Source: Chrysochromulina tobinii (Eukaryota). From it: a DNA stretch of 46,570 bases. This document shows, piece after piece, positions 5,188-44,619 of the stretch. The notes under the pieces were generated by a model. That model did not search any database. It worked only from the letters and a program-made list of their open reading frames with translations, and had not been told where the DNA came from. The stretch's first letter is position 1; every line of letters starts with the position of its first letter. Location: positions 1-46,570 of the forward strand of contig JWZX01003284.1 in the NCBI GenBank assembly GCA_001275005.1. The letters are read 5' to 3'. The translations under genes and the position numbers were made by a program.

Positions 5188-7021
5188 TGCACAAGCTCAG
5201 CGAGTCCACACCGCTCATCTCGAAAGGGCGGTACGCGTTTGAGCGACTCGGCATCGATTCGCGAGAGGTGTGGAGTATCATCATCATCGTGCTGCTTTTC
5301 ATCGGCAAGGGCGTCCAGCCGTTTGTCACGGACATCGTGCACGTGACGCAGGCGGCGCTGATCGAGGACAAGACGCTCGACATCACATTTACGGCGCTAG
5401 GCGGCCTCGTGGGCGTGCAGGACTTCACGTCCGGGGTCGCCAAGCTGAGCGTGCCCATCGTGCTGCGCAACTTCGGGCCGAGGATTGTGTATCTCACAGT
5501 GCTCTTCGTGGGCGCGTGCAATACGCTGGCGATCGCGAGCATCGAGGGCGACGTGAGTATCACCGTAATCTTCTCGGGCACTGTGCTGCAGTCGTTCGTG
5601 CACTCGTGGTTGTACCCGGCGACGACGATGACCATCTGCGGCTGGATGGATGGGTCAGTGCTGGGGCGCTCGATCGGTATCGTGGCTGTGGCGACCAAGA
5701 TCACGCCCATCTTCATGGCGCTCATCTACGGCCACCTTCTCGACGTGGGCACCTGGCGGACGTGCTACTACTTCGCCTCCATCCTCTTTGCGAGTATCTT
5801 CGTCGTCTTCTTCGTCTTCATGCGCTCGTCGGCAACCTCCGTCGGCTTCCGCATGCCCGCGCAGCCCACCTCGGGCAAGAAAGGCAACAAGAGGGGCGGC
5901 GAGGATGGGCCCGTGACGGCGCCGAATCGGCCGCCGCCCCTGGGCAATGAGCCGAGCAGCCTCCGGGCTCTATACATCATCAGTTGCATGCGGCGAACGT
6001 GGGCGCTCTTGCTGGGCTTCACCTGCCTCGTCCTTCTGAAGGGGAGCGCCAAGTTTGCGTCGCTGTACGCCAAGCAGAAGCTCGGAGTGACAGCGAGCCA
6101 GGGCACGACGCTCTTCACCACGTACGCTGTCGCAAGCGTCGTCTCGGGCCTGTGCGGCGGCTTCGTGTACGACGCTGTGCCCGAAGGCAAGGTAGGCATC
6201 GGGGTGTTGATGACCTCGCTCAACCTACTCAACCTATCCGGCTTCATCTACGCCCTGGTGCTTGAGCAGATGGACTTCGTGACGATGCCGCTGCTGCAGG
6301 TGTACATGTTCATCGTGGGATTCGCCTCGGTCCTGCCAGTGAGCTTGCCTTTCCAGATCTACGCGATGGGCATGGGCGGCGTCGAGCACTGCGGCATGAT
6401 CGTCGCGGCATTCGAGTGCTTCGCTCTCATTGTCGAGTCACTATTCGACGTGGTCATCGGCTGCTTGCTCGACCAAAAGAACTTTAGCGTGTGGCTCTCC
6501 CTCAACATCGTCTTTGCCACGCTCGGCACCGCCTTCATGGCCCTCTTCTACATTCTTGACTATCGGAAGTCGCCCAAGGCCAACGTGCTCACCTCCGTGC
6601 CCAGGTGAGTGCCACTGATTGCCTCTGATGGCCTCTGATGGCCTCTGATGGCCACTGATGGCCACTGATGGCCTCTGATGGCCACTGATGGCCTCTGATG
6701 TTCGCTGATGGCCTCTGAAGGCCTCTCGCAATCGCCACTGATGACCACTGATGACCATCGACCGCATGCTCGTTGCCTCCGACCAGCCTCAACTCGATCA
6801 CGCGCACCTACTCGAAGCTTCGCCTTTGGGCAGAAACGCTCACGCCCTCGTCCTCGTGCGCCTCTCTCGCCTCCATCGGCTTTGGGAACCCGTCGGAGCC
6901 TTCGTCACCATCCACGCGAGATGGCAGCACACGGCGCAGCCCGATTTCTCCGTCAGCGAGCTGCAAGGGCATGGTGCCAACATTGGCGCCCGGATCGCCC
7001 CCCAAAACTGCAGAGTCTTGA
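5188..7021 (+). CDS. Major facilitator superfamily transporter; exons ~5188-6604 and 6787-7021
   Basis: Two bundles of about 6 hydrophobic helices separated by a hydrophilic loop. MFS-like segments 'LRNFGPRIV' and 'GWMDGSVLGRSIG'. Intron 6605-6786 (GTGAGT...GACCAG) joins in frame to LNSITRTYSKLRLW. The start is uncertain because the ORF is open to 4947. Confidence 0.8.
6612..6757 (+). repeat. Intronic decamer array (CTGATGGCCT/CTGATGGCCA variants)
   Basis: Directly visible tandem repeats inside the MFS intron. Confidence 0.9.
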
Positions 7022-7231
7022 ACATATTCCAACTACGCTCTCCGTTCGTCCGGTGGTGCGACGAGGTGCGGCGTCGCGGACCGGACCCCCGTTCGTCCGG
7101 TTGGGTCCCTTATTCGGGTCCCCGGGGGGACCGACAGCGGGCGTCCCCGTCTTGCAGACTTGCACTTTGAAGTTTTACAGAGCAACCCTAGAGCGTGAGT
7201 ATCTTCCTGAAAGGAGTAAAAAAGTCCCACA

Positions 7232-8074
7232 CTACGGCCCCGCCTGCCCCTGCTTATACTCGCGCTCGACGATCACCGGCCCGGAGCCCTTGCGCCAGTC
7301 GGCCACTGCAGCGGCAAAGGCCGCCCTCTCCGTCTCGCGCGTGAGCGCGTGTCTCGCCCTAGCCTCGGCGAGCGCAGCGTTCGAGTAGCGACGGCGCTGA
7401 TTCGACTCGCATACGGCCTGTACCGCGGCATGCAGCGCCGGCCGGGCACGCTCGGGCGAACTCACATTCTCAATGCCGATCGGCGGCGTCGGCAACTTCT
7501 CGAGCAGCCGCCGCAGGCTCTCAGGAGCGCTGGCGTCGAGCGCCGCCGCGAGCTCGGCCGCGCCTAATGGGCAGCCCGTGAAGACGAGCGCCGTGTGAGC
7601 GAGCGCCGACTCGCCGCAGTTCGCGACGAACGCATCTACCGCCGCCTCATGGTCCGGCCGAAAGCGACCCCACCGCACGACAAACAAGAAGACGTCGATG
7701 CCGGAGGGCGTGAGGTCCGAAAAGGCGGAGAAGCGCCGCATGACCTCCTCCGCGGGCAGACCCGTGTCGTGAAGCCCGATCGTATCGACGACGCGCATCT
7801 CGACCACCTCCTCAGCAATAAGCAGATAGTCACGGTGGGCCACGCCGGCAGTTTCGGACGATAAGCCGCCGCTGACGGCAAAAGCGTCCAATGCGCCGCA
7901 CAGCGTATTGCCCGTGCTCGACTTACCGTCGCCCGTGACGCCGACGAGCACGATCGCGCGCAGATTCGCGTCCTCCTCTGGCTCGGAGGACTGCTGTGCC
8001 TCCGCGAGTGCCAGAAGAGCTTGCATCGATTGCTCCGCCGCGCCGATGTAAAGATCCAGCCCCTCTTTTCTCAT
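7232..8074 (-). CDS. AIG1/GIMAP (IAN)-family P-loop GTPase
   Basis: IVLVGVTGDGKSSTGNTLCG (G1), VVDTIGLHDT (G3), 'GIDVFLFVVRWGRF', 'HTALVFTG' (G4 region) and a C-terminal helical tail. Start placed at ATG 8074; ATG 8026 is an alternative. Confidence 0.85.
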   Translation of the reverse strand: MRKEGLDLYIGAAEQSMQALLALAEAQQSSEPEEDANLRAIVLVGVTGDGKSSTGNTLCGALDAFAVSGGLSSETAGVAHRDYLLIAEEVVEMRVVDTIGLHDTGLPAEEVMRRFSAFSDLTPSGIDVFLFVVRWGRFRPDHEAAVDAFVANCGESALAHTALVFTGCPLGAAELAAALDASAPESLRRLLEKLPTPPIGIENVSSPERARPALHAAVQAVCESNQRRRYSNAALAEARARHALTRETERAAFAAAVADWRKGSGPVIVEREYKQGQAGP

Positions 8075-8358: not shown

Positions 8359-11300
8359 ATGCCATACATTGACCTGCCCGGCAGTGCCATGAAGCGTGGC
8401 TTTAGATTGAGCCGCGCCGCAGCGAACCGGCCGTACCGCGAGTGGACGGACGAGGGGCCGCAGCAACCGTCCATGGACGCGGGCTACTCTCCGGTGGACG
8501 ACAAGCGTGCCAAGCGTGAGGCGGCAATCGTCGTGCAGCGGTGGTACCGCCGGCAGCTGCTCAAGTTCGCCACCTTCGGGCCGGTCATATTCACGCGGCG
8601 CGACGGCAAGCTCGCCGATTTTGGCTCGCTCTCGTTCCTCGGCGGCACGCGGATCGCCTACTACATTCGCATCTCGGACACTACGTCATCGGCTATGCTC
8701 TCGCACTTCTTGGAGAAGTATTGGCGGCTGCCGCGACCGGACGTGCTCATCTCGGTCACGGGCTCTGCCGCATCGCTCCAGCTGACCTCGCAGCTGCAGC
8801 GGGTCTTCGACCGCGGCCTCGCGTCGGCGGCCGCGATGACGAACGCGTGGATCTTCACCGGAGGCACGGACAGCGGCGTGATGAAGCTCGTAGGCGAGGC
8901 GATGCATAAGTACGGGCTGGTGGACGTGCCGGTCGTGGGCGTCGCGCCGTGGGGCGCGATTGCGGGGCGCAAGGAGCTGAGCGACAAGAAGGGTCAAACC
9001 ATCGAGGTGATGGCATGGCAATACGAGTGCGCCTCTGCGTGCGCCTCTGAGTGCGCCTCCGAGTGCGTCCAATTGCCTGCCTCATCAGGTGATGTACGGC
9101 AAGACCGGGATGGACACTGTCGGCCGCCTCAACCCCTACCACACGCATCAGATCCTCGTGGACGCGCCGGACGGCGGGAGCGAGGCCACCGCCTGGGGCT
9201 CGGAGATCGGGCTGAGATCGCGCCTCGAGCGCACGTACGCGATCACAGTGATAGATGGCCATTGATGACCTCTGATTGCCTCCCTCATCAGGCTCGGAGA
9301 TCGGGCTGAGATCGCGCCTCGAGCGCACGTACGCGGTCGCAGTGATAGATGGCCATTGATGACCTCTGATTGCCTCCCTCATCAGGTATGCGATCTCGAA
9401 GGGCGTGCCCGTAGTGCAGCTCGTCATCCAGGGCGGACTGGGCACGCTCGACACGTGCATCGCTTCCGCTGAGCTCGGATCGCCGTTACTCATCCTCGCC
9501 GACTCGGGCGGCGCGGCCACGGCCATCGCGCAGTTCTGCACGGGGGGAGAATCGGGGGGAGGTGTGTGAGTGCATGCGGAGTGCCTCGCGGACTACATCT
9601 CTGAGTGCATTCTGATGGCATCTCTGAGTGCATGCTGAGTGCCTCGCGGACTGCATCTCTGAGTGCATGCTGATGGCATCTCTGAGTGCATGCTGATTAC
9701 ATCCCTCATCGCGGATTGCATCTCTGAGTGCATTCTGATGGCTGATGGCGCATCCGCTCTGAGTGCATGCTGATTACATATCTGAGTGCATGCTGATTGC
9801 ATCTCTGAGTGCATGCTGATAGTGCATCCGCTCTGGCGGTGGGGGATTCTGATTGCCACGGATTGCCACGGATTGCCACGGATTGCAGCACGCTCTGACG
9901 GGTTGGGGATTCACGTGGAATCCTCGACGCGCTCGAGAGTGCCGTGTGATTGCATCTGTGAGTGCCGTGTGATTGCATCTTTGATTGCATGCTGACTGCC
10001 TCTGTGAGTGCATGCTGCTGAGTGCAGGAGGGGACATCGACGCGGTTGAGAGCGCCGACTTCATCGCGCAGGAGCCCAAGCTGCGCCAGCTCAAGTCGCT
10101 CAACGACGAGCGCGGGGGCACGTTGCTCAGCTTCTTCAAGCTGCAGGATGAGGACTCTCAGCAGAACATGTCGAGCGCCATCTTGGGCGCGCTCTTCCGG
10201 AACCTGATGTTCCACCAGCCGGGCCAGGCGGTGGGCAGCTCCATCACGCCGGCCATGCAGCGCCTGGCCAAGCGCCGTTCTGAAGTGTACGACGGCGCGG
10301 CGGTGGTGAAGGCGGCGACAGATGAGATCTTCAAGCGTTACCTCGATCAGATGCAGGTGTGTGATTGCCCTCGATTGGTTGCTGTGATGGCCTCACTCAT
10401 CACAGAGGCACGGGATTCCCGCTGATGGCCTCACTCATACAGAGGCACGCGGGATTGCCGCTGATGGCCTCACTCATCACAGAGGCACGCGGGACTGCCG
10501 CTGATGGCAACGATGTGCGACTGATCGGCATGATGTACGGCCATGGGCATGTACATACGATTATACATACGATTATACATACGACTGATCGGCATGATGG
10601 CTTCCCTCGGCAGCGCGCGCTGCTGCTCACTGTCAAGTGGAATCAGCCAAGCTTCGCGAGGCGCATTCTCGTCGACCTGCCACCCTCGCACGATCACACG
10701 CGCCCGATGCGTAAGATGCTTCAGCATGCGATAGGACAGCGCCGGCTGGAGATCGTGCGCCTGCTGCTCGAGCGCCCAGGTGCGATCTCCCTTGATGACC
10801 ACTGATTGCATGCCAATGGCACCCGATCGTGCGCCTGCTGCTGCTCGGACGTTCAGGCACCGCAATCTCGTCTGTCAGCCTGTGCCAGCTGTACTTGCTT
10901 GAGGACCCGTACAATTACTTACGCCGAGATCTCGCGCTCCAGGCGAGATTACAGCGAGCTCTGAGCGAGATCGCGCGAGATGGGAACACACAGGCCCAAT
11001 GGGGTTCCGCCTACCTTCTCTTCCGCAACACGGTTGGACCCACGCTTCGAGCGGTCACGCCGCTGCTCGGCGGCATCATCGAGAATCAGCGTCTTTGCAC
11101 GCACGCCGATGTCTTCTTCTGGTGAGTGCCCTCTGATGGCGCCTCTAATGGCCTGTGATGGCCTGTGATGATGGCCTCTGATTGCATTTCTGGTGAGTGC
11201 CCTCTGATGGCGCCTCTGACGGCGCCTTTGATGGCCTCTGATGATGGCCTCTGATTGCATCTGATGGCCTCCCTCATCAGGTGCGTCTTCATGGGCGACG

Positions 11301-14300
11301 TGCGCCTCGCGCGCGAGCTCTGGGCCTACGTGGAGCATCCCCTGCACTGCGCACTGATCGCAAGCCACGTGCTCAACGTGATCGCGTCGCGCGCGTCGGC
11401 TGCCAAGATTGAGGCGCGCGCGGCGGCGGCCGAGATAGAAGCTTGGGCGATGGGCGTGATGGACGAAATCCAGGAGCAGGAGGTCGGCCACTGGCTGCTC
11501 TCGCAGCACGTGCCTGCGTGGGGGCTCGGCTCGATCGTCGATCTCGCCCTCCAGGTGCGATCTCCCTTGATGAGCACTGATTGCATGCTGAGTGCACTCC
11601 CTCGGTTCGATCGTCGATCTCGCACCCTCCGATGGAGCTCGTGAGGAGATCGTCGATCTCGCACCCTCCGATGGAGCTCGTGAGGAGATCGTCGATCTCG
11701 CACCCTCCGATGGAGTTCGTGAGCTTCCTCGGATGGCCTGATGGCCTCGGATTGCCTATGATGGCCTCTGATTGCCTCTGATTGCCTCTGATTGCCACTC
11801 ATGAGCTCTTCGATCTCGATCTCGCCCCCCAGATGGAGCTCAAGACCTTCCTCGCGCATCGTCACTGCCAGTCGCTGATGGATCTACGATGGCGCGGCGG
11901 CTTCCCGGTGCTTACCTCTAGGCCTCTGATGGCCTCTGATGGCCTCTGATAGCCTCTGATGGCCTCTGATGGCCTCTGATGGCCTCTGATGGCCTCTGAT
12001 GGCCTCTGATGGCCTCTGATGGCCTCTGATGGCCTCTGATGGCCTCTGATGCGCGGCGGCTTCCGTGCCTTCAGGGCTCCGGCTGCATCGTGCCTGCGTC
12101 CCACTCGATGCCCCTCATTTCTGCGTGGATGCTCTTCCCCTTGTTGAACCCGTACTTGCGGCGCGACGCTGAGGGCAAGTCCGGCGAACGCTCATCCAAT
12201 GCCCCAACCCATTCCCCCGGGGGATCTTCGACTTTTGGCAACGATGGGTACGATGAGGATGATGACTTCTGATGACCTGTGATGACTTCTGATGACCTCT
12301 GATGACCTCTGATGACCTCTGATGGCCTCCCTCATCAGGTACGATGAGGATGATGGGCAAGTCAGCCCGATTGGGGAGGATCCCGAGCTCTTGCTCGGGG
12401 CGCTCGCGGAGGCGCTCAACCTCAAGGAGTACGTCTGATGGCTTCTGATGAGCTTTGATTCCCTCTGAGTGCCTCTCATCGCCTCTGATGGCCTCTGATG
12501 GCCTCCAGTGGCCTCCAATGGCCTCTGAGTGCCTCTGATGGCCTCTGAGTGCCCTGAGTGCCTCTGATGGCGCCCCTGTCTCAGGTTCGAGAAGAAGAAG
12601 GCACGGGCCGCTCTCGATGTCGAGGCGGAGAAGAAGCGCCTTGAGGTGGAGAAGGAGAGTGCTCTGCAGAAGGCGCTGGCGGAGGCTGCGCGTGCAAAGG
12701 CAAAGGAGGAGTGGGCGGCGCAGCGTGCTGCTCAAGAGGCACGCTCGGGCGCGGGCGTGGTGGACCCACGTCACCAGAGGTCACCTGATCAGAGGTCACC
12801 TGAGGATCTCCGCGATCTCCCTCCGAAGAAGGCATTCAAGAGCGTCGCGGTCAACGTGATGGAGATGGATGACAAGCGCGGGGTGGGTGTAGATGGATCA
12901 CCAACTAAGCGGCTCGCGGTCACGCTCCGCGCCCTCTCCCTTCGTCGGGAAGGCTCGCAGTCCGCTCTGCTCGGGCGCTCATTCAAGCACCAGCAGACCT
13001 TCTCGCACTCGGTCAAAAGTCTCGTCAACCGCGGGTTTCGTGACGCACCGGAGGTGGCCAAGAGACCCAAGAGTGTGAATGTGAATGGCTTCTACTCAGT
13101 GCTCTTGATTGCGTCCCTCATCAGGTGGCCAAGAGACCCAAGAGTGGTTTCTACTCAGTGCCCCTGGTCAAGTACTGCATGCGCGCCGTGTCGCACGTGC
13201 TCTTCTTGTGCCTCTATTTCGAGGTCTGCACCCATCTGCTCACCTCGCTGATGACCTCTGATGACATCGGATTGCTTCTGATGACCTCTTGATTTCCTAC
13301 CTCATCAGGTCCTCACCCATCTGCTCACGGTGGATCAGCTCTGGGCCATGTCACCGAGGCTGCCGCCGCTCACGTGGGCCGAGCTGATGCTGATCGTCTG
13401 GTCCCTTACACTGGGGTACGAGCATCGGCAGCGCGACTACCTGATGAAAACGTACGGGCTGATTGCGGACTCATGGCTCAAGTCACTTGTGAACACGGCG
13501 CACATGGTGATGAATGCCGCCATCGGGCTGCGCCTCGTCACGCGGATCCCGGGCTTCGAGTTCGCCTCGGCGTATACGGCCTATCAGACGCTAGTCTCGT
13601 TCGACGCCGTCCTCATGTGTTGCGAGACGTTCACTTTCATGTGGACTTCACACAATTTCGGCATCCTGGCGATCACGCTCGTGCAGATGATGATCGACCT
13701 CTCGCTATTCCTCGTCTTCTTCTCGGTCATTATCGTCGGCTTCTGCTTCGCGCTCGTCGGCCTCTCAGAGACGGTGATTGCAGCTGATTGCGTCTGAGTG
13801 GCCCTTTGATTGCGTCTGCTTCGCACTCGTGGCCTCTCAGAGACGGTGATTGCAGATGATTGCGTCTGAATGGCCCTTTGAGTGCGCCTGATGGCCTCCC
13901 TCATCAGGCTGGAGAACACGATCTACTCTCCGCAGCCACTTTCGAAGACATCAAATCCGCGGGCCACACCCTCTCCGGCGCCGCCGTCGCCGCCGCATCC
14001 GTCGCTTCGGATTCTATTCGGGCCGGCATCACGTCGGCGTCGGCGTCGGGTGGTCGACGCCTATCAGTCGACGCGACGGACTCTGTGGACCGGCGTCTGC
14101 TGTCGGCCATCGACATGCTCGGCGGCGGTGGTGGTGGCGGCGGAGGCGTGCAGACCGAGCCCCTGGCGCTCTATTGGCAACCTTTCTGGTACATGTACGC
14201 CGAGTTTGACATCGATGTGCTTCGTCAAGTGCCCTTCGCTCTCCCGCTAATGTGGGTGTACGTGCTGCTCGCCAACGTTGTGCTCGTCAACATGCTGATC

Positions 14301-15262
14301 GCGATGTTTGCGGACACGTACACGCGCATCAAGCGGAACGCGGAGGTCGAGTATCAGTATCAGCACTACCTTCACATCTTCGAGTACCAGCACGTCGTGC
14401 ACCATCTGCCGCCGCCCTTCAATGCTCCCATGCTGCTCTGGGATGCCTGCCGCGCATGCTTCCGCTCGACCGAGGCCCTGGAGCGGCTCGTCCGAATGGA
14501 CTTTGGCGCCTTTCCAGAGCGTGAGTACCTGGAGCTGTATGGGGCGGCGCCGCTGCTTCATGGGGCAGGTTCCTCGGGCAGCTCCACTCTGAGCCGCAAG
14601 TGCGTGCTTGGCTCTTGCTCTGATGCGCTCTGATGCGCTCTGATGCGCTCTGATGGGCTCTGATGGGCTCTTATGGGCTCTGATGGGCTCTGATTGGTTG
14701 AGAGCCTGTGCGCGCCACTGATGACCTGCGATGACCTCTGATGACCTCCGATGCCCTGTGATGGCCCACTGATGCCCGCTGATGACCTCTGATTGCCTCC
14801 CTCCTCAGGTATGTTCAGCGATTCCTCAAGGCTCGCGCGGAGGTGACGAACCACTGATGACCTCTGATTGCCTCCCTCAGGTATGTTCAGCGATTCCTCA
14901 AGGCTCGCGCGGAGGTGACGAACCAGACGTCGCAGGCGGCGCTCGTGCGCCGTATTGAGCAGATGGTCGACGATCTTGAGGAGAGCCTGCAGCACGAGTT
15001 CGAGCACATCAGCAACAGCCTCGTGGCGCAGCGCGACGAGACGAACCGCAAGTTTAAGTACATTGTGGCCGCCGTCGACCGCGCGGCACGCGGCGAGGTC
15101 GCCAAGTCGAGCCAGGTGGGCGTGCAGGCGATGAAGGAGGCAGTCCGCGCCCCCACCACCTCGCCGCCTGCGACGTTGCGCACGGCACCGCAGGGCGGCG
15201 GCGGCGGTGGCGGCGGGCCCGGCGGTGCGGCCCAGCCCAAGAGGATACAAAGGCAGGTTTAG
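8359..15262 (+). CDS. TRPM-like cation channel with N-terminal SLOG/MHR region; 15 exons (introns 9007-9088, 9235-9385, 9562-10027, 10357-10613, 10780-10856, 11122-11280, 11555-11832, 11908-12074, 12248-12338, 12429-12584, 13054-13124, 13224-13308, 13774-13907, 14600-14880)
   Basis: The spliced frame is continuous. It shows TRPM hallmarks LISVTGSA, AWIFTGGTDSGVMKLVGEA, VGVAPWG, LNPYHTHQILVD, GSEIGLRSRLE, VPVVQLVIQGG, ILADSGGAA, LLLTVKWNQ, KTFLAHRHCQSLMDLRWRG and FYSVPLVKY. S6 reads ANVVLVNMLIAMFADTY, followed by LPPPFN and a C-terminal coiled coil. All introns are GT-AG with consistent phases. Confidence 0.85.
9197..9384 (+). repeat. 94-bp tandem duplication spanning an exon end and a whole intron unit
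   Basis: ggctcggagatcggg...ctccctcatca at 9197-9290 and 9291-9384, nearly identical. Confidence 0.9.
9566..10025 (+). repeat. Intronic degenerate array of CTGAGTGCAT/CTGATTGCAT units plus (GATTGCCACG)n
   Basis: Visible repeats filling TRPM intron 3. Confidence 0.85.
11609..11723 (+). repeat. Three 39-bp intronic repeats resembling the spliced exon7-exon8 junction
   Basis: Unit gatcgtcgatctcgcaccctccgatggagctcgtgagga at 11609, 11648 and 11687, compared with the spliced junction gatcgtcgatctcgccctccag|atggagctc. Confidence 0.9.
11921..12050 (+). repeat. (GGCCTCTGAT)x13 intronic array
   Basis: Near-perfect decamer tandem repeat with one variant unit. Confidence 0.95.
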
Positions 15263-34801: not shown

Positions 34802-36370
34802 ATGGTCGGCCACAAGTTCGCAGACAAAGTCTCCCTTCGCGAGTATCTTCTTGCGCACGGCGTGGATTCCATCGCATGGGGCACGCGCGGTGCCAAGCAC
34901 GTTGAGGACCTGCTCGAGGAGCTGCAGCAAGGGGAAGCATCGCTGCAGCTCGTCGATGGCAAGATCTATCGCAACCTGGGCGTCGTGAAGCTGATCGTAC
35001 GCAGCCCGGAGGTCCCAGGGCAGCATCTCGTTTGCTACGAGCAGCAGATGGCCGACGGGCGCAAGCGCCAACGCAACGTGCTTCTGGCGGAGAAGAAGAA
35101 GCGCAACGAGACGGCAGATCAGGCTGCGATGCGAGCCATCAGGGAGGAGCTGGGCAGCGTCAAGGGGATGAAGCTCGACAGTGTGCTGCTGCGCGTGGGC
35201 ACCTACAAGAATTGGGAGGAGGCCGATGTGTCTCCATCATATCCGACGCTCTCCACCCGGTACGAGCTGCATCAGTATGAGGTGCGCGTGCGCGGCCTGC
35301 CCAAGCATCCGTTCATGACGGTTGAGGATGCTGGCGAGGGCAAGAAGAAGTTCAACTTTTGGAAGTGGGTCGTCGACTCCGATGACGATCTTCGGTACAA
35401 GGGCTTTGCCACTGGGCAGCGGCTCTCAGACGTCCACGAGGAACACCCAATAAACCCCAGCAAGTGGCAGCCGTCGGGAGTCGCTCAAAACATATTCGCA
35501 GACAAGGTGGAGGCGCGTAAGTACCTTCTCTCGCACGGTGTGGATACAGCCGCGTGGGGCGTATGTGATGCCAAGCGCATCGAAGACCTGCTCGAGGAGC
35601 TGCAGCAAGGGGAAGCATCACTGCAGCTCGTCGATGGCAAGATCTATCGCAACCTGGGCGTCGTGAAGCTGATCGTACGCAGCCCGGAGGTCCCAGGGCA
35701 GCATCTCGTTTGCTACGAGCAGCAGATGGCCGACGGGCGCAAGCGCCAACGCAACGTGCTTCTGGCGGAGAAGAAGAAGCGCAACGAGACGGCAGATCAG
35801 GCTGCGATGCGAGCCATCAGGGAGGAGCTGGGCAGCGTCAAGGGGATGAAGCTCGACAGTGTGCTGCTGCGCGTGGGCACCTACAAGAATTGGGAGGAGG
35901 CCGATGTGTCTCCATCATATCCGACGCTCTCCACCCGGTACGAGCTGCATCAGTATGAGGTGCGCGTGCGCGGCCTGCCCAAGCATCCGTTCATGACGGT
36001 TGAGGATGCGGGCGAGGGCAAGAAGAAGTTCAACTTTTGGAAGTGGGTCGTCGACTCCGATGTCGATCTTCGGTACAAGGGCCCTTCGACGGGTGTCCTC
36101 GGCTTCAATGAGTTGTTGGCTCAGCGTCCGCCGTCGACCATAGGAGACAGCCGCAAGGGCTTCGACGTCGCGTTCATCAACTCGCCAATAGGCTCCGCCA
36201 CTTACTGGCCCGCGGCGACTGCATTCTTGTCGCCGCGCAGCGTTCATTGCTGGCAGCCCAGCGTAAACGAGGGGGGGGGGATCCTCACGCCGACGTGGCA
36301 GCCGCCGCAGGCGCAGTCACTCGCCAACCCCGTTTCCAGGCGCCACCCACATCGCACTACGCCATTTTGA
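34802..36370 (+). CDS. Protein with two tandem NUDIX-like domains; the C-terminus may extend to 36764 via a frameshift
   Basis: Repeated domain containing WGxxxAKxxEDLLEELQQGEASL, EKKKRNETADQAAMRAIREELG (Nudix-box-like) and SPSYPTLSTRYELH. Confidence 0.7.
   Translation: MVGHKFADKVSLREYLLAHGVDSIAWGTRGAKHVEDLLEELQQGEASLQLVDGKIYRNLGVVKLIVRSPEVPGQHLVCYEQQMADGRKRQRNVLLAEKKKRNETADQAAMRAIREELGSVKGMKLDSVLLRVGTYKNWEEADVSPSYPTLSTRYELHQYEVRVRGLPKHPFMTVEDAGEGKKKFNFWKWVVDSDDDLRYKGFATGQRLSDVHEEHPINPSKWQPSGVAQNIFADKVEARKYLLSHGVDTAAWGVCDAKRIEDLLEELQQGEASLQLVDGKIYRNLGVVKLIVRSPEVPGQHLVCYEQQMADGRKRQRNVLLAEKKKRNETADQAAMRAIREELGSVKGMKLDSVLLRVGTYKNWEEADVSPSYPTLSTRYELHQYEVRVRGLPKHPFMTVEDAGEGKKKFNFWKWVVDSDVDLRYKGPSTGVLGFNELLAQRPPSTIGDSRKGFDVAFINSPIGSATYWPAATAFLSPRSVHCWQPSVNEGGGILTPTWQPPQAQSLANPVSRRHPHRTTPF
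34905..36081 (+). repeat. Near-identical coding duplication of about 500 bp, period 678 bp
   Basis: ~34905-35403 versus ~35583-36081 show only a few substitutions. Shadow ORFs 35032 and 35710 translate identically. Confidence 0.95.
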
Positions 36371-37019
36371 GCCGAGGCCTCCGACACCCTCGCAGCGGCA
36401 GCCGCACGAGCAGAGGCGTAACGGGGAACGGCACGCTCATGCCACGTTACGATCGCCTCCTAGAACTCCCGTTTCTCCATCCGCATTGCGCCCCTTCTCG
36501 CCTCGGACGCCAGAGGGAAGCAGATCGTCTCCACGATCGCCTACAAGTACAACTGATAGACTCTTCACACCCACGGTGCCGCTCGACCGCCGGCTGTACG
36601 CGAAGCCCGGGCTCGAGGACCCGGCCTCAGACAATGGCGATACGACGCCACGCACGGCCCAGGCTCGCGCGCGTCGGCTCGCGGCAATTTTGAACAGCTT
36701 GTACCCACCAGTGCGCCGAGCGGGCTTCTTGGACGACGACGAACCCGAGGACGGCGAGTCTTGAAAACGGTTCTCAGAACGTAAAGCGTAAGGGTTCCCG
36801 GATTATGGAATCGAATGCGTCTTCCTAGACAAAATTTTGCCGTTTGCCGACCTTTCCGCTTTCGCCCGCGCGGCTGAGAATGCGATGCCATCGTCGGTAT
36901 TTGCCCCACCCGCCCGGTCAATTGAATGGTTGACCCAAAGGGGAGTGGTAGTATGATGTCTGCATGCGCCAAGCCGCACACACACTGATCTCACACTCAT
37001 TACAACAAGATACAAGTTC

Positions 37020-40000
37020 TCATTCGATGTCAAAGACGGGCGTCTGCCGCATCATCTGGCGGCCTCGCGTCGGGGGCAGCGCCGAGCTGCCGGCGCGCTG
37101 CCGGGCTGTGTCGGCGCGGCCCGTCGGCTGCACCACCTGCCAGAGCACGACGGTGCGGTCGGCGCCGCCCGCGGAGACGGCGAGGCGATCCCCCTTGAGG
37201 AAGCGCGTGCAGGTGACAGGGGCCGAGTGGCCAGTGCCGTGCACGTACGGTGCCTCTTCGACGACGCACGGCGCATTGAAGAGTTTGACGAGCCCGTCGT
37301 CGCCGCCGGTGAGCAGAAGCGCGCCGTCGCGGGCGAGGTGGCACGCGTTCACGTCGGTGCTGTCTGATCCGTCCGGCCAGATCCCCATGCACGGGAAGCC
37401 CAGGTAACATGTCCAGCTCGCCCACTGCGCCGTCGCGAGCGTGCGGCCTGGCTGATTGAGCCGCTGGCCCGAGGGAACTCCCCAAATGAGGATCTCATGT
37501 GCGGCGCAGTTGCTCATCAGGGCACGTCCATCGGCAGACCAGTCAAGATGCGTCACCGTTGCCGTGTGCCCCGCGCACACGCAGCGCGGCACCAGCTGGA
37601 AGCGCCCCAAGGACGAGCTTGCCGACCTCACAGCCGAGCCCGCCTTCGCCGCCCCACCGCCCTCGGGCTTGAGTTCGAGGATCCGAACCATCCGATCATG
37701 ACTGCCGCATGCGATCAGCCCCCCAGATGTGACATTGGTCTGCGGCGCGAAGGCGATCACCTCAATCACACCTGTGCCACCCGTCGGGAGCACTGCCAGG
37801 GCTGGCGCGCCGCCGCTGCTCCCCGCCGCTGAGCCTGCGCCGCCCAAGGCCGCACCGCCCGCCGCTCCCCCTGCGCCACTCGGCGGCCCTGCGCCCAGCA
37901 GTGGCCCTTGGCGCGGTCGCAGCACCGCCAGGCCGCCCGCGTCAAGGCCGAAGGCCACGAGGATGCCGTCGGTTGAGTAGGCGACGCAGTGTGCGGGAGT
38001 CGGCAGCGAGAGCCGCTCGGTCGGCAGCGTCGCGCCAGCCGTCCAGAGGAGTGCTTGCTTGTCGTGGCCGCAGCTGACCCAGCGACCCTCCAGAGTGGGG
38101 TGTGCCGCCACACCGCTCACATGCCCAAAGTGGGCCGCGCTCAACTCGACGCCCTGCGTCGGCCCGAGCTTCCACAACGAGCAGCGCGCGGTACCCACGC
38201 ACAGGGTGGGTACCTGTAGCCCCCCGCCGCTCACGGCACGCTGCGCGCCTTGCGGCAGAACGCAGATCGACCGGATAGCGCCGACGCCCGGGTTCATCGT
38301 CCTCGTGGGGAGCTCGAGGAGGCGCTCGCCTGGAACGGGGGCAGGCTTGGGTTTCGGCTGTGTAGCTACGAGGTGGTTGGGGTCGCTCACGTTGCGCGAG
38401 GAGGCAGGCTGGGTCGGCCGGTACTGCGGATCAAGCTTGTACGCCGGCGTGGCGGGCGTGAACGAGTACGTATGCGCCTTTTCGAGCCCGCCCGCCGTCG
38501 CGGCGCTCACAGGGGCACGTGGCGTGCCGCCCACGACGCGCGCGCCGGCGGGCGGTCCCCACAGGTACACGAAACCGTCGGCGCCGCCCGAAGCAATCGC
38601 ATTGCCGGTGGAGCATAGCGCGGTGACAGGCCCTTGGTGCGCGTCCACGCCCCAAAGCGCCAACTCATTCGCAGGCGCGTCGAAGACGAAGATGCGCCCG
38701 CCCGAGCTGCCGATGAACGTGAGCCCGTGCGCAGCACCCGAAGGTGCAGGGAAGGCGTCGCCGCCAAAGGCGACGGCCGACAGGGCCGCTGGCGGCGCCT
38801 GGCCCGGCTTAAGCCCAAGCTGGCCCAACCCAAACGTGAGTGTGTATCGGAGGGGGCCGGCCGCGGCGACGGGCACGATCTTGCCAAACTTGGGTGCGTT
38901 CGAGACGCCCACGAGCACGCAGAACAACGACTGGCGCCCCTTGTCGTCCGTCGCGAGTGGCTGGGGCGCGACGCTCAACTGATGAACTCCGAGCGGGCGC
39001 GCCACCAGCCCGGGGGCTTGCGCCATGAGCTCGCCCTTGCGCCAGTCCCACACACCGACCAGGTGCTGCTCGTCCTTGCCCACTCCGATTATTAGGTGGC
39101 CCTGCAAGCACGTGACTCGATCGCCGGGCTCATACATGAGGAGGAGGCCCCACACAGCAGGGCACATGGGAGGGGAGGAGTCAGGTGCAACACAGCAGGA
39201 TGCACGCCAGAAGGTTCGACGCATCGAGAACGGGCCAACACACGTTTGGCGAGAAGGCGAGCGCGCAGAGCGCGCCCGGGTAAAATGGGCGCATCGTCAC
39301 GCCGTCGTTCTTGCGCTCGTCCTACACCTTGCCAATGATTGCTACTTGTTCTCGTGAGCCGATCTGCCACAGGTGGATGGACGCGTCGGCGCCACCCGCG
39401 TTCATGCCCTGGCCGGTGGCCACGAGCTCGCCGCTCGGATGGAGCGCGACGCAGGTGACGTCGCAGTCATGCCCGTCATATACGGTTTGAGTGCCCGTGC
39501 CCAGATCGGTCATCACAGCCATCGCCGCCGTGCTGTGAAGCAGTCGGCCGTCTGGGAGTGTGAACAAATTGGGCCCCCGACTGAGTGTGCCGAACCCATT
39601 GTAGCCGAGCACTATCTGCCGGCGCAGCCCAGCGGCGGGGTGTTGCGCCGAGCGCGTGACGAGCGCCCCGTCGAAATCGTCAGGGACGAGCAAGGGGGTT
39701 CGGCACTGCCGGTACTTGATCATCCGTGGAAGCTCGTTAGGCCGGGGCGCGGGCACGTGGCGTGCGCCCGTGCGCTTGGTGCCCGGCTTGCCGTCGCCGC
39801 GGTCGAACGCGCCCTGCTGCATGCCTGGACGAGCGTCGCTCGCCACGCTGGCGCCGGCACCGCCGGCACCACAGGCACCGCCGGCACCGCTGCCGCATGC
39901 AAGAGCTGCGCCGACGCCGATCGCCGCCCGACCGGCGGCTGTCGAAGGCAGAGGGTCCCGAGGTCCGAATTTGGGAGGCTTGGCGGCCGCTGAGCCGGTG

Positions 40001-40822
40001 GCGATGGGCACCGGGCATAGCAGCTCGAGGAGCTGAGCCACGTTGCCGCCGCCCGAGCGCTGCCACGCCGCACTCACGAATGCAGGCTCGAGAATTTGAA
40101 TAGCAGAGGCACGAGCGCCAGCAAAGTGTTGTCGTAGACGGCGCAGCGTGTCGAGGAGTGCGGCCTCGCTCACGGTGGACGCGCGCGGTTCGACGGCCCG
40201 AAGGAGGCGCAGGAGCGCGAGCTGTGCCTCCAGCGCCTCCGCTTGGCGTGCATGCATCGTCAGACGCTCCGAGCGAGGCAGTGCGCCTGCCGAGCGTGCC
40301 GATGCCACCTCACAGCCCAACGCCCAGCGCAGATCTTTCTTGCCTAGTTCGAAGGCATCGGCACCGGCAGCCGCGGTCGCCGGCCTTGGCGAGGGGCGCG
40401 CGGCAGAAGCCGGTGCCGCGGGCGCTGGAGCAGCCACCTCCCACGCTTGCTTCGGTGGCGATGGCTTGGGCATTTGCAGAGGCGGTGCCGTGGGGATCAG
40501 TGATGATGGCGCCGCTGTCTGTGGTGATGGAAAGAGAGCGGCCGCAAAGGTGCGTGCGTCCACAGAACGCTGTGGCGGCACACCAGGCTGCTGGACTGCG
40601 TGCGCATCAAACAGACGTCGCGACACTGCCGGCGGGATGCCTGGACGCAAGGAGTGAGAGGCACCGATTGAAGGCGTCGAACGACAGCGTGCCCGCGCGA
40701 TCGTCCGCATTCTGCATCATGAGTGCCTCGAGTGTCAGCCTCGCAGGCCTGCCTTCGCGCGTGCTCCGGTGGGTGGCGACGACGATGCGCCGGAGGGCTT
40801 CGGCGTCAGCAAGGGTCGCCAT
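37020..40822 (-). CDS. Echinoderm microtubule-associated protein-like (EML; HELP motif + WD40), with an apparent frameshift (~40650), an in-frame TAG (39322-39324) and an intron 39102-39243
   Basis: HELP-like LRRQIVLGYNG...NLF, and YDGHDCDVTCVALHPSGELVATGQ. EML C-terminus WASWTCYLGFPCMGIWPDGSDSTDVNAC...LLTGGDDGLVKLFNAPC...GHSAPVTCTRF...SAGGADRTVVLW. Confidence 0.8.
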
Positions 40823-41026
40823 CCGGACTTTGTGAATATCCCTGTGACAATGGTAAAAAGGCCCGGGGGGAGCCGGGACGCCCCCGCGCGGTACCCGCCA
40901 TGGTGTGAATGTATGTGTGTGAATGTGAATGTGTGTCTGTGTGACTTCTAACACACACGGACACACGGGACACGCGGGCGCACAAATGGTAAGGAAAAGG
41001 TTGAGACAAAAAATCAAACTCTGACC

Positions 41027-43001
41027 TTACCCCCCATCACCTCTTATCTTCGGCAGCCGCATCACCTTGGCCAGCTGTCCCCGAAGCTTCTTGAGCACAA
41101 ACGGGTGCTCGCCGGGCGTAGTGAGCTCCTCACGTAGCCTTCCCGCGCGCGACGCATTCGCATCGACACGGAAGAGGTCAACGTGGCGCTCGCACTTCGC
41201 CTTGGCCTCGAGCGCGTCGGTTCCATGCTGTCTGCGGTCTGCGGTCCATTGGATGAGGGTCCAGCCCTGCGGGCGAATGGTATGGCTGACTCAGTGGCCC
41301 ATGCAGCACTCGGTGACATTCACACCATGGCATTCACACCATGACATCACACCAGTGGCCCATGCAGCACTCGGTGGCAGTCCGCAGCAATAGAGGCACG
41401 CTGGGGCACACAGTGACAATCAGTGGCCATCAAGTGGCCATGAGTGGCCATCAAGCGGCCATCAAGTGGCCATCAAGCGGCCATCAAGTGGTCATCAAGA
41501 GGCCATGAAGAGGTCATCAAGCGGCCATGAAGAGGTCATCAAGTGGTCATCAGTGGCCATCAAGAGGCCATCAAGTGGCCATCAAGTGGCGATCGATGGC
41601 AACCACCTGCGTGCGCACGGCATAGCCCATACAGCGCTCGGGTTCGCTCACAGGCCATTGCGAGAAGGCGAGCGCACTCGCTATCCGTCGCTTGGGCGCT
41701 CGTCGTCGCATCAGAGGCACAAGGGACCGTCCCTCAAGCGGCGGTGGCTCACCTGTTCCACTCGCGCCACCGCCGCTGCCCTCTGCAGCCGCGCCGCTCG
41801 CGCCGCCACCCGTGCCAGGTACGGGAAGGCCGCACAGCTGCAGCACTGTAGGAAAGACATCGATGAGCTCCACAGGAGCTTGGACGCGCTTAGGTGACAC
41901 TCCGGGCGCCGCAACGAGTAGAGGCACGTGCGTGTCTGCCGCGAGCAACGTGTGCTTGCCCCACCCTCCATGATGGCCTAGTTTATATCCGTGGTCGCTC
42001 AGGAGCACAATGAGCGACGTCTCCCTGGCCGCCGTGCCAAGCGCTGCCAGCACGCGCCCAACCTGTGCATCCACAAACGAGACGGCCGCCGCGTACGCGC
42101 GCACGAGGTCGAGTCCCTCCGGACTGTTCGGCTTGAGTCGCCGCCGGATCCGCATCTCGGGCCGATGCGCAAAGTCGAAGAGCTCGCCGTCGCCCGCGCG
42201 CACGTGACTCGCGCTCAACTCGGACAGCCCCGCGGGTGCGCGCGCCTCGGTGCCCGTCGGCGCGTGCCGTGCGGCTGCCTCAGCTGCATCCCAGTAACGC
42301 GCAGGAACGTTGAAGGGCAGATGGGGCCGTATGAAACCGACGGCGAGCAGCCACGGGCGCGGCTGCTCGTGCAGCCGGCGCAGGGCACGTACCGCGAGCG
42401 TGCCCAAGCGCTCGTCAGTGTACGGGCTACTCGGCCGATCGGGGCCAACCTCAAAGGGGGGCACCAACCCGTTCACCGACACCTTGTCGCCGCCGTGGCG
42501 GCGCCGCCTCGTCGTTTTCTGCCTGGCTACGTTGGGCGCCGTCATGTATTGGTTGTAGCGCCAGCCATGCGTCCAGCCGCCGGCGCGAGACCACGCACGG
42601 CCGGTCAGCCCACGGTACGTATGGTTGTCTGCCCACTCGTCCTGGCCGCTCCACGATGGCGAGTCGTCGAGGAACTGGTGGAAGATCTTTCCGTACGAGA
42701 CGGTCAAGTACCCGTGCTCCCGAAACACCTGCGGCAGCGTCTTCAAGCGTTTGTGGCGGGCGCGCACATGCGTCTGCAGATCGTACACGCCGTGTGAGTC
42801 GGGGCGCAAGCCGGTGAGGAGCGAGGCCCTGCTCGGAGCGCAGTTAGCGACGGAGGCGTGCGCCTGCAGAAACGTGACGCTAGACTTCGAGAGGGCATCG
42901 ATGGCGGGTGTGCGGGCCCATTTCCGACCATACGATCCGAGATCGGTCCTCAAGTCGTCGATGATCAGCATTAGGAGGTTTAGCCTCGTGCGGCCGTCCA
43001 T
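41027..43001 (-). CDS. Formylglycine-dependent sulfatase, iduronate-2-sulfatase-like; exons 43001-41607 and 41266-41027
   Basis: NLLMLIIDDLR, TPAIDAL, CAPSRASLLTG (CxPxR), GKIFH, GFIRPHLPF, SDHGYKLG and VELIDVFPT. The spliced MGYAVRTQ|GWTLIQW junction crosses intron 41267-41606. Confidence 0.88.
41420..41600 (-). repeat. Intronic 11-mer array (CTTGATGGCCA on the sense strand)
   Basis: Reads tggccatcaag repeats on +, i.e. CTTGATGGCCA in the sulfatase pre-mRNA. Confidence 0.85.
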
Positions 43002-43200
43002 TTCGTCGTGACTGTGCTTTGGGAGGGAAGGGTGTGAAAGTGTGAACGTTAACACGACAATGCGTCTACAGTAGCTACATGTACTGTAATTGAAGTGTGA
43101 TGTCCAACACGCTTCACAGAAGTTTGCTCTCGTTGCTACGGCGGCACGACGGAGGGCGCCTTCGCTCCGCTCGCATATTCCGCCAGGGACTCGGTACATC

Positions 43201-44619
43201 ATGCCGAAAGGAAATCCGAAGAAGCCGCCCGGCTCCAAAAAATCTGCTCTCCCACCCAAGCTGCTGTCGAGCTGGGGCTTCGTCATCTTCGGCGCGTGCG
43301 GTGTGGCGCTCGCAATTGTCATGCCGCACCTCCTCAAGTACCTATTCCCGCACCCAGAACCGAAGCCACGCGTGGACAACGGCGCTACCCAGCAGCAGCA
43401 GCAGCAGAGCTCGCCAAAGGCCGTCTGCGCAGAGGACGGCCCGCCGGAGCATGAGATGTGCCTCGCCTGGCACAAGGCCGGATACTGCCGCGCACAGCGC
43501 CGCGGCGTCAGCTTTCCATCAGCTCAGCAGGTGCAGGAGCAGTGCGCTCGCACCTGCGGGCTCTGCCCTAACACTAAAGGGCGCAATCCACCCAAGCCGC
43601 GTGAGGATCGTTGCTCGCGCGACAACACCACGGCGGCCGTGCCCGAGGGCGAGCTCAACCGGCTCTTCGAGCGCATCAAAGCGGAGTACCCGGAGTACGA
43701 GCCGACGTTTCTCTCGACGTCGCCGTATGTGTTGCACCTGAAGAACTTCATCAGCGCGGAGGAGGCGGCCGCGTTCCAGAGCACGTGCAAGGAGTCCTTC
43801 GAGCGCTCGCTCGCGGGCGACCAGCTCAACCCGGTGCGCACCTCGTTCCAGTGTTGGTGCAACTTCGGAGACTGCTTCGCGAACCCTCTGGTGCACCGCG
43901 TGACACGTCGGATCAACAACCTGACGAACACGCCGTACGACAACGGCGAGGACCTTCAGGTCGTGCGGTACGAGCCGGGCCAATTCTACCGCGTCCACCA
44001 CGACCAGAACACGGCCGTGTGGGCACCCCAGGGTCCTCGTGTCCTCACCTTCTTCATGTACCTCAACGACGTCCCCTCGGGCGGCGAGACCGCGTTTCCA
44101 CAGATACCCTCGCCGTCGGGCAAGGGCCACCTTATCGTCCAGCCGCGGCTCGGCCATGCCATCCTGTGGCCTTCGGTCTTCGACGAGCGGCCCATGGAGG
44201 CTGATGAGCGCACCAATCACGAGGCGATGCCGGTGCACGAGGGCGTCAAATTTGGCGCCAATATGTGGATCCACCAGGTGCGTGCGACTGATTGCGACTG
44301 ATTGCGACTGATTGCCACGGATTGCCACGGATTGCCACTGATGGCCACTGATGGCCACTGATTGCCACTGATGACCTCCCGATATGTGGATCCACATCAG
44401 TTCTCATTCAAGACGCCGTCGGAGCGAGGGTGCGAACTCACGTATGTCAACACGGTCGGCCGCCAGCCGCAGACGCGCGAGCATGAGGCGCTCGTCGCTG
44501 GGCGAGTTCCCACGTATGAGGAGACGGTGCGAGCCGCGAGCCAGAGCAAGAGCCTCGACCCGGACACGCTCGCCCGCCTCGATGCCAAATTCAAACGAGG
44601 AGGTCGCGACCAGGTGTGA
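43201..44619 (+). CDS. Prolyl 4-hydroxylase (2OG-Fe(II) oxygenase) with N-terminal TM anchor and ShKT-like domain; exons 43201-44277 and 44401-44619
   Basis: TM segment WGFVIFGACGVALAIVM, ShKT-like CLAWHKAGYC...QCARTCGLC, LQVVRYEPGQFYRVHHD, TFFMYLNDVPSGGETAFP and HEAMPVHEGVKFGANMWIH. Intron at 44278-44400. Confidence 0.9.

Follow-up and report, generated by a model that had tools for sequence, protein, structure and literature searches.

The origin of new spliceosomal introns is a long-open question. In the literature consulted, the cases of intron gain recorded at genome scale mostly involve short DNA transposons that leave fixed duplications of 3–8 nt. The introner-like elements of Symbiodinium and Polarella glacialis (classes 4/5 and 6/8/10), read as DNA transposons, carry duplications of this size that are fixed per class (bioRxiv 10.1101/2020.10.14.339549), and the introners of Micromonas pusilla, which share an orientation, have been proposed to propagate at R-loops (PMC4815162, PMC11282704).

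The introns described here, from a 46,570-nt stretch of Chrysochromulina tobinii DNA (contig JWZX01003284.1; ‘the window’) and from look-alike metagenome loci, differ from the Symbiodinium and Polarella elements in having duplications that vary from 10 to 47 nt, a body made of either a tandem array or a 45-nt cassette, and one ragged end. The introners of a marine Chrysochromulina sp. MAG are alike in having a haptophyte host, in lacking terminal inverted repeats and in co-opting one splice site from the duplication, but they have a 4-bp duplication and carry their own 5′ site (PMC9860276). The pipeline of that study compares ends near the intron boundary and, we infer, could therefore miss introns whose first 10–47 nt are host exon. 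M. pusilla introners also comprise thousands of similar introns, mostly intronic, with many partial copies and few intergenic ones; they differ in their 3-nt duplications and terminal inverted repeats, and the sections available describe no long exon duplicate (PMC4815162, PMC11282704). Direct repeats likewise flank introns gained by double-strand-break repair in Daphnia (43%), and in tandem genomic duplication a duplicated AG/GT makes both splice sites, as in the SET-like intron below; in the available account of both routes the filler belongs to no repeated family, whereas here it is a high-copy intron end reused genome-wide (PMC3443670). No title or abstract that we found dealt with this cassette or with long variable duplications in haptophyte introns; the supplementary family lists of PMC9860276 and PMC12130899 could include them. 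Term searches of PMC4580454, PMC12480563 and PMC11347835 found no passage on such cassettes.

The preliminary description of the window had placed arrays of short repeats in MFS, TRPM and P4H introns on the plus strand and in a sulfatase intron on the minus strand. Clusters of TGAKKRC indeed lie on the plus strand at 6606–6749 (MFS), 9008–14865 (TRPM) and 44289–44369 (P4H), and on the minus strand at 41432–41584 (sulfatase). Gene identity and strand were taken from Pfam. The MFS, TRPM, sulfatase and SET introns are based on homology or reading frame; RNA support, in the form of assembled contigs of RNA runs (X11 and X13 among them) compared with a DNA run (X1), is confined to the P4H and carboxypeptidase introns. 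Besides the TRPM-like gene, the window holds:

6605–6757, plus strand: putative terminal intron of the MFS gene (MFS_1 upstream on the same strand), donor GTGAGT followed by a decamer array.
22981–23063 (donor 22981 or 23006), plus strand: predicted ordinary-looking intron with one unit inside.
27463–27547, minus strand: predicted 85-nt intron of a SET-like gene, with a 39-nt duplication containing AG/GT and a (TTGAC)n filler; the join is in frame.
33637–33764, minus strand: 128-nt carboxypeptidase intron, without decamers or exon copy, with 25-nt repeats containing CTCAC.
37020–40900, minus strand: EML gene region, with no intron; its frame breaks are errors in the window sequence.
41267–41606, minus strand: predicted 340-nt sulfatase intron, with a CTTGATGGCCA array at 41422–41594; the end of the upstream exon recurs in it as a degenerate copy.
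44278–44400, plus strand: 123-nt GT..AG intron of P4H, with 7 units; close to its acceptor, 14 nt of the upstream exon end are repeated.

The P4H intron was absent from RNA contigs in three of three RNA runs and present in the DNA run, and the spliced protein (P0001) has 431 aa; it is the sole array intron whose precise excision has RNA support. The carboxypeptidase intron was skipped by X11 and X13 RNA contigs and spanned by X1. The sulfatase join is in frame (GYAVRTQ/GWTLIQW), and part of its array is covered unspliced by an X11 RNA-run contig (41036–41510). No joint for the SET-like intron was among the RNA-contig joints shown, and Pfam gave no SET match for this gene, which we take to be SET-like. 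Its filler had been grouped with the decamer arrays; (TTGAC)n is a different 5-mer without clear polarity. The division of the window's introns into two classes, with and without arrays, proved too simple, as ordinary introns stand beside introns of two or more cassette families. Among the supposedly array-free examples, the intron at 22981 holds its one decamer unit, the predicted PKG intron has a (CTCCCC)n array, and the EML intron does not exist, since three differences in the DNA run give a single 1,292-aa frame.

Strand bias was measured in the window and in 123 metagenome loci selected by pattern (890 kb; 715 kb after removal of overlaps). Arrays of at least three units numbered 438 in 762,031 non-redundant bases, a density inflated because the loci were chosen by the cassette pattern; simulating the same length with a third-order Markov model gave 3. 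Strand was called with our own coding model, which put about 2 of 34 window segments on the wrong strand. Among 229 non-seed array regions, those with coding DNA on both flanks comprised 122 sense and 1 antisense (122 of 123 sense); those with one coding flank comprised 79 sense and 6 antisense, 1 region was mixed, and 20 regions had no coding call within 300 nt. By gene cluster (n = 88), orientation was sense in 78, antisense in 4 and absent in 6. Long exons chosen beside arrays lay on the array strand in 52 of 52 cases, 30 of them with a Pfam match at E ≤ 1e-5, and the genes flanking cassette introns belong to many Pfam families. Two arrays fell in 13.8 kb of divergent intergenic DNA, a small sample. 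Sense polarity and restriction of the arrays to introns are supported. No clear polarity was seen for GTGTGAATG or for (TTGAC)n, which occurred in nine runs: 5 lay in sense, 2 lay in antisense and the other 2 had no assigned orientation. Emiliania huxleyi, as reportedly described by Read et al. in 2013, has intronic tandem repeats of 10–11 bp with strand and position bias, to which a role in regulation was reportedly ascribed without mention of an insertion footprint. Those repeats would share with ours a haptophyte host, the period, the intronic location and the bias; if that account holds, strand polarity as such has already been published for a second haptophyte.

Each array forms the body of a common intron-end cassette, decamers followed by CCTCCCTCATCAG or CTGATTGCCTCCCTCATCAG, which stands between two copies of a 10–47-nt exon piece, X. 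At 88 of 182 terminal CCYTCATCAG acceptors the intron opens with a duplicate of the bases that begin the following exon, and this duplicate supplies the donor (median 23 nt; controls 10/182 and 1; duplicates preceded by ATCAG are left out of the 88). The other 94 showed no duplicate above the score cut-off, some of them being short or decayed. The duplicate begins with GT or GC in 77 of the 88 introns, and exon 1 ends in AG in only 33. Mirrored forms, in which the upstream exon end is duplicated (as in the RNA-confirmed P4H intron), and double-site forms also occur; a sorting of 298 same-strand gaps by model boundaries, too crude for more (most ‘no duplicate’; swapped control 8/297), was used solely to show that both exist. 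A second, repeat-free cassette, GCATGCAAGTGCTCACCACGGCG..CCCCACAG, with a single CTCAC branch motif, has the exon-duplicate footprint in 36 of 60 cases (control 3/60). Non-redundant loci contain 243 CCYTCATCAG acceptors and 56 exact repeat-free cores; many introns of unrelated genes thus share sequence, as introners do, and an exact 30-nt cassette end is common to more than 120 loci (some redundant). Whole introns are not alike end to end, because in duplicate-bearing introns the first or last 10–47 nt are host exon and one end is shared.

The densest series is in the TRPM-like gene, whose introns were located by tblastn of full-length homologs, junction scoring and unit counts:

8359–15262, plus strand: TRPM-like channel gene (Pfam LSDAT_euk/TRPM2, tblastn), with 15 predicted introns, 14 of them with at least one decamer unit.
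9007–9088, plus strand: T1, cassette end CCTCATCAG; exon copy of just 6 nt.
9235–9385, plus strand: T2, 10-nt downstream-exon copy at the donor, 94-nt internal duplication, cassette end.
9562–10027 (approximate boundaries), plus strand: T3, long CTGAGTGCATG-type array of 24 units.
10357–10613, plus strand: T4, 6 units and 40-nt internal repeats; exon copy not found.
10780–10856, plus strand: T5, mirrored, 18-nt upstream-exon copy near the acceptor.
11122–11280, plus strand: T7, both ends cassette-like (GTGAGTGCC ... CCCTCATCAG), 11 units.
11555–11832, plus strand: T8, mirrored, sharing the start GTGCGATCTCCCTTGATGA with T5.
11908–12074, plus strand: T9, mirrored, 13 decamers, gapped copy of the upstream exon end.
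12248–12338, plus strand: T10, the type example: perfect 17-nt copy of the downstream exon start (giving GT), array, then CCTCCCTCATCAG.
12433–12584, plus strand: T11, 9 units; donor 12429 or 12433.
13054–13124, plus strand: T12, the first 22 nt of the downstream exon perfectly copied, a single unit, then the cassette end; splice pair read off the sequence, outside the top-scoring joins.
13224–13308, plus strand: T13, diverged 20-nt copy of the downstream exon start, cassette end.
13774–13907, plus strand: T14, 72-nt junction duplication, cassette end.
14600–14880, plus strand: T15, array; a secondary duplication of 72 nt takes in the acceptor and the start of the exon.

The duplication events are recent: 37 of 85 X pairs are identical, and mismatches total 86 in 1,972 nt. 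Microhomology at the junction of X and cassette averaged 1.83 nt (n = 36 of 85), against 0.88 in a matched null that counts maximal extension (p=0.001; 0.55 in a null ignoring extension). X length and cassette length were inversely related (rho −0.72, n = 59), and all but one of these 59 introns measured at least 67 nt. Junctions are commonly reduplicated, a second acceptor lying within 130 nt downstream in 61 of 243. Cassettes in different introns of one gene had a similarity of 0.39 (86 pairs, not independent of one another), against 0.18 between loci and 0.21 for nearby cassettes on the opposite strand; the effect was uneven, 12 of 18 loci exceeding background, and in the repeat-free family it fell short of significance (p=0.14). 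When folded, the minimal cassette forms a stem of 7 bp, CTGATGA/TCATCAG, between unit and acceptor end, with the 5′ end at any register; the 23-nt repeat-free core, when folded, has no end-to-end stem. The decamer cassette was absent from the viral contigs and prokaryote genomes searched. The repeat-free core had one viral match, at the end of a seemingly chimeric phage contig, to which we give no weight. Rfam, run on 54 kb, returned no family at gathering score; six box C/D snoRNA (sR3) matches in three loci reached 21–29 bits against a cut-off of 41 and were set aside. Of 7 candidates in a search for read-through proteins, the only 3 that qualified came from the window locus itself. Protein predictions are contaminated where a cassette is read through, as in P0121–P0123.

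Empty sites were found in a few cases. In a TPR gene (L028) one of five 126-nt units carries a 161-nt insert, and all ten units of its paralog (L058) are clean; at a second empty site L058 has one X and no intron. In relatives, genomic read-through ORFs cross the positions of T1–T3 (P0125), T1–T5 (P0126) and T1–T8 (P0133). T1 is a counter-example: its position is also interrupted in two relatives, P0127 and P0129, with which it is probably shared, and at least one cassette intron may therefore be a colonised old intron. Strains 97–99% identical differ in unit number by whole units, and two strains (L008 and L073) differ by the precise presence or absence of 83 nt without a duplicate, which fits whole-intron transposition or precise loss. 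RNA data exist from mixed-culture runs in which the alga appears, and cassette sites vary among lake strains.

We judge it somewhat probable that the arrays, as bodies of sense-strand intron-end cassettes, were copied into exons by templated break repair and survive only if spliceable. Introner-like intron gain through templated repair, with sense copies retained by selection and DNA or RNA as template, is our best reading. Where X ends, a sense-strand terminus left by a break or a stall would pair, through microhomology of about 2 nt, with a unit in some other intron, frequently of the same gene, copy through that intron's AG and rejoin at the start of X; the template could be DNA or intron RNA, and a mirrored event would be the copying of an intron start. 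Selection would retain those events that leave the reading frame intact, reach a total length of about 67 nt or more, take GT/GC or AG from X and place the cassette in sense, and strand polarity would arise because selection keeps sense-facing cassettes. Later changes, visible between strains, are the gain and loss of whole units in arrays and the renewed duplication of junctions. The working branch point would be the last unit, with its A at −17, upstream units acting mainly as spacer and as landing sites for more copying. Against this reading stand the 94 acceptors with no duplicate above the cut-off, the duplicate-free 83-nt difference between strains, the T1 position and the uneven similarity within genes, and neither a template nor an enzyme nor an intermediate came to light. 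Selection alone fails to account for the scarcity of intergenic arrays (2 in 13.8 kb, a small sample).

Of the two origins offered in the preliminary description, templated addition, joined with that description's idea of making new duplications spliceable, comes close to this anatomy (the SET AG/GT duplication with its filler; an exon duplicate in about half of cassette introns). De novo synthesis from one common template is not supported, the unit variants being gene-specific and common to neighbouring introns. A telomerase-like enzyme adding units from one template RNA in the direction of transcription would suit the microhomology at array starts, the variable unit number and the strict polarity, but is very improbable given 10-, 11- and 12-nt variants that differ by gene, a repeat-free family with equal footprint, strain differences that are whole-unit slips, and the lack of any Rfam family at gathering score in 54 kb. 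The other origin, ordinary intronic minisatellites selected as redundant branch sites, draws on the resemblance of the units to the branch consensus. That resemblance holds for 68% (CTRAY) and 78% (YTRAY) of 2,443 units, bare YTGAN being uninformative (347 on the plus and 299 on the minus strand of the window). In the terminal unit, CTGAT, the A of a YTRAY motif keeps a constant spacing from the AG downstream, lying at −17 in 94% of 130, a figure partly circular since the filter required a nearby unit; CTCAC of the repeat-free family lies mostly 23–34 nt from AG. The last unit alone is a positioned branch candidate. Selection for redundancy is quite improbable, and unneeded because a repeat-free cassette with one motif makes like introns with an equal footprint (36/60). 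Interior and terminal units show no measurable difference in degeneracy (p=0.56 and 0.35, at low power), unit number changes between strains, and the exact 30-nt end and the exon duplicates would be left unexplained. Of the earlier observation, the positions, the polarity and the branch-like units endured; its EML, SET, 22981, PKG and bare-YTGAN parts did not.

Non-LTR elements are known to leave duplications of variable length and to carry repeat tails, and the cassette read antisense has a fixed 5′ end and a 3′ tandem-repeat tail. Target-primed, SINE-like retrotransposition by a non-LTR reverse transcriptase, with variable target-site duplication and with selection keeping the spliceable orientation, would explain 10–47-nt duplications with one fixed end and one ragged, microhomologous end; in one survey, non-LTR-derived introners make up 5% of confidently classified examples (PMC12130899). 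It is nevertheless unlikely in view of the mirrored forms and pure-array fillers, the unit variants specific to genes and common to neighbours, the scarcity of antisense (1 vs 122) and intergenic copies, the repeat-free family without a repeat tail, and the fact that no master element was noticed in the 715 kb read. It is also improbable that old introns were colonised and rejuvenated in general, their acceptor being duplicated inside them together with the start of the exon, their former 5′ portion then lost and their ends made uniform by gene conversion. Common reduplication (61/243), with T15 as an intermediate, the probably common position of T1 and the likeness of neighbouring introns fit that course; clean empty sites in the TPR repeats and paralog, relatives' ORFs unbroken over T2–T8, and 88 duplicates counted after exclusion of ATCAG-preceded ones go against it. 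A classical DNA-transposon introner (MITE) with terminal inverted repeats is hardly credible. The 7-bp stem would suit it, as would a duplicate-derived splice site, a logic seen in Symbiodinium/Polarella classes 4 and 5 (bioRxiv 10.1101/2020.10.14.339549), but it is largely refuted because duplication length varies (a spread of 10–47 nt, vs a fixed 3–8 nt), and the ragged 5′ end and stemless repeat-free core also count against it.

Within templated repair of transcribed genes, a narrower version is possible, if doubtful: splicing by-products (excised or half reverse-spliced intron RNA) may template repair at breaks, writing an intron end and a long exon duplicate. If so, sense orientation, gene confinement, the exact AG end and within-gene spread would become obligatory, and genes would gain introns at genome scale without a transposase, by a path other than that of DNA-transposon introners. 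Such cassettes may escape the usual introner searches. As two unrelated cassettes leave an equally long and variable duplication, a host-repair or RNA-templated route without a dedicated transposase is indicated, and since the events are recent, RNA data exist and strains differ, its mechanism is testable with population genomes and lariat sequencing.

The window is eukaryotic: the best named relative of its P4H protein is from Prymnesium parvum (63%), and the remaining named organisms among that protein's relatives are haptophytes too. The runs containing window DNA are mixed-culture and freshwater metagenomes. A 30-nt pattern from the cassette, the shared intron-end sequence with its decamer array, was run over metagenome contigs and gave 123 loci (715 kb once overlaps were removed). 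Because these loci were selected by pattern, the copies that selected them (seeds) were excluded from strand tests and from the position matrix; they stay in the exon-duplicate counts (88/182 and its controls). Coding strand came from an orientation-blind model, built on 14 window stretches and self-trained on the loci, which assigned about 2 of 34 window segments to the wrong strand.

Decamer arrays lie in the window where the preliminary description had placed them, and the genes bearing them are on the strands it claimed, in agreement with Pfam. The pattern-selected loci plus the window contained 438 arrays with three or more units, versus 3 in an equal-length simulation. The strand bias proposed there was also borne out in the loci: the coding model called both flanks sense in 122 of the 229 non-seed array regions and both antisense in 1. 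One-flank calls were 79 sense and 6 antisense, with 1 region mixed; 20 regions had no coding call within 300 nt, and 6 had none within 600 nt. On the strand opposite each locus's seed, we counted 25 sense versus 1 antisense, and among 88 gene clusters 78 sense, 4 antisense and 6 without a call. The longest array-adjacent exons, one per locus and strand taken from 147, all lay on the array strand (52/52; 30 with a Pfam match). Divergent intergenic DNA, a small sample, held 2 arrays in 13.8 kb.

Other parts of the same observation did not stand, so that it is confirmed in part. EML, said to contain an intron, is one 1,292-aa frame after applying three differences from the DNA run; these window consensus errors break the frame and mimic introns. 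The SET filler, taken for the same kind of array, is (TTGAC)n with no clear polarity, and the supposedly array-free 22981 intron has one unit. Small consensus errors relative to DNA run X1 occur in window 27000-46570, including 37020-40900. Features of the window are as follows.

44278-44400: P4H intron, spliced in RNA contigs of all three RNA runs, not in the DNA run
33637-33764: carboxypeptidase intron, spliced in RNA contigs of two runs
34801-36080: Nudix-like gene, two near-identical halves of ~600 nt each
21523-21730: 33-nt tandem repeat, 6.3 copies, within an open frame

Homologs and frame predict the 15 introns (T1-T15) of the TRPM-like channel gene, together with one intron each in the sulfatase and SET genes; one RNA-run contig reads unspliced through part of the sulfatase array. 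A different decamer array, CTCATCGCTG on the + strand, occupies 45952-46016 and 46200-46569, immediately beyond a TRP-channel-like fragment of the - strand. Summed DNA depth is very high, and joints are numerous, at short dispersed intergenic repeats (~34555-34589, 40902-40985 and 45246-45290). GTGTGAATG is common close to gene ends, with no clear strand polarity.

Many arrays end in CTGATTGCCTCCCTCATCAG and start in host sequence. Terminal CCYTCATCAG acceptors numbered 182, and 88 of them were preceded by a copy of the first bases of the following exon (the exon piece X), compared with 10/182 for the exon interior and 1 for swapped flanks. These duplicates begin with GT (65) or GC (12) in most cases and have a median length of 23 nt, ranging from 10 to 47 nt except in three longer cases that look like reduplications. 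Among 104 scored cases, the repeat began at the AG or slightly inside it 59 times and deeper in the exon 23 times; in the other 22, reduplicated acceptors, it began at the leftmost position searched. In a mirrored form (P4H, T5, T8, T9), which begins GTGAGTGC or similar, the upstream exon end is duplicated; in a third (SET), an AG/GT-containing duplicate supplies both splice sites. The longer the duplicate, the shorter the cassette (rho -0.72, n = 59), and 58 of the 59 introns are at least 67 nt long. The unit and the cassette's 3' acceptor end (e.g. window 12319-12338) are reverse complements and fold into a 7-bp stem including the AG. Box C/D-like words occur in the units.

A second cassette, GCATGCAAGTGCTCACCACGGCG..CCCCACAG, is free of decamers; its 56 exact cores lie in L004, L012, L026, L058, L061 and other loci, and none in the window. 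It had the exon-duplicate footprint in 36/60 cases (control 3/60), and was sense in 55 of 68, antisense in 3 and without assignment in 10. The 25-nt repeats of the carboxypeptidase intron faintly resemble it. It also occurs at L124:4200-4554, where alga-like sequence forms the end of a phage contig, probably a chimeric assembly.

The units had been described as branch-point-like, and CTRAY is indeed present in 68% of them; in 94% of the 130 non-seed acceptors the last unit has its A at position -17, with a filter that was partly circular. That the arrays are selected as redundant branch sites is nevertheless very improbable: excess degeneracy of interior units was not distinguishable (p = 0.56, 0.35), and the single-branch second cassette works without repeats. 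The unit variant TGAGTGC can be read equally as the donor word GTGAGT. These data are consistent with a single working branch point and spacer.

Evidence on gain comes from several sites. In L028, a 161-nt insert interrupts one of five TPR units, and the units of its paralog L058 are clean (10/10); at a second site in L058, X is present once and the intron is missing. Three ORFs of relatives are uninterrupted across T1-T3, T1-T5 and T1-T8, and their read-through tails make them look genomic. Against gain, the relatives P0127 and P0129 have an interruption at about T1, and the colonisation of old introns by cassettes is accordingly to be weighed, though we think it quite unlikely. Against gain with a duplicate, the sole precise presence/absence case, a GT-AG intron of 83 nt belonging to the second family (L008 versus L073 near L008:1456; strains 97.9% identical), has no exon duplicate and could be either gain or loss. 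The duplicates are young: 37 of 85 pairs are identical. Between strains 97-99% identical, array length differs mostly by whole units, and entire junctions have been duplicated again; the T2 junction duplication has one extra copy in P0123 versus P0122, and the public predicted proteins P0121-P0123 include the cassette read-through LMTSDCLPHQV. Across loci, CpG in the intron copy was paired with TpG/CpA in the exon copy 17 times and the reverse 9 times, possibly reflecting exon methylation.

On balance, we infer that an intron end, often a neighbour's, would be copied into a break, that copying would then return to the start of X, and that selection would afterwards act on donor, acceptor, frame, length and orientation. 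Cassette likeness was 0.39 between different introns of one gene (86 non-independent pairs from 18 loci, 12 of them above background), 0.18 between loci and 0.21 for the opposite strand nearby; for the second family, within-gene and other likeness did not differ significantly. Microhomology at X/cassette junctions was 1.83 nt versus 0.88 expected (p = 0.001, n = 36). Spread of the cassette from excised or half reverse-spliced intron RNA, used as a repair template at breaks in the transcribed gene, is possible but doubtful, and non-LTR retrotransposition as the source is unlikely. Telomerase-like synthesis of the units and a MITE origin of the cassettes both seem highly implausible. Rfam, viral and prokaryote scans gave nothing informative, and the analysis turned up no enzyme or template. 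The earlier interpretation, which offered redundant branch sites or templated synthesis, is supported in part. Cassette introns do not resemble one another end to end, and with their variable duplication length they do not pass as DNA-transposon introners.

The Emiliania genome paper reportedly describes intronic, strand-biased repeats of 10-11 bp. Our literature search, mostly of titles and abstracts, met no description of the cassette. Introners of Micromonas lie mostly within introns (PMC4815162), the duplication made by an introner of a marine Chrysochromulina measures 4 bp (PMC9860276), and repair-derived introns in Daphnia are flanked by direct repeats (PMC3443670). Dinoflagellate introner-like elements share the splice-site logic seen here, but the length of their duplications is fixed, at 3-8 nt (10.1101/2020.10.14.339549), whereas the exon duplicates here are mostly 10-47 nt. 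In C. tobinii, the cassette works like an introner.
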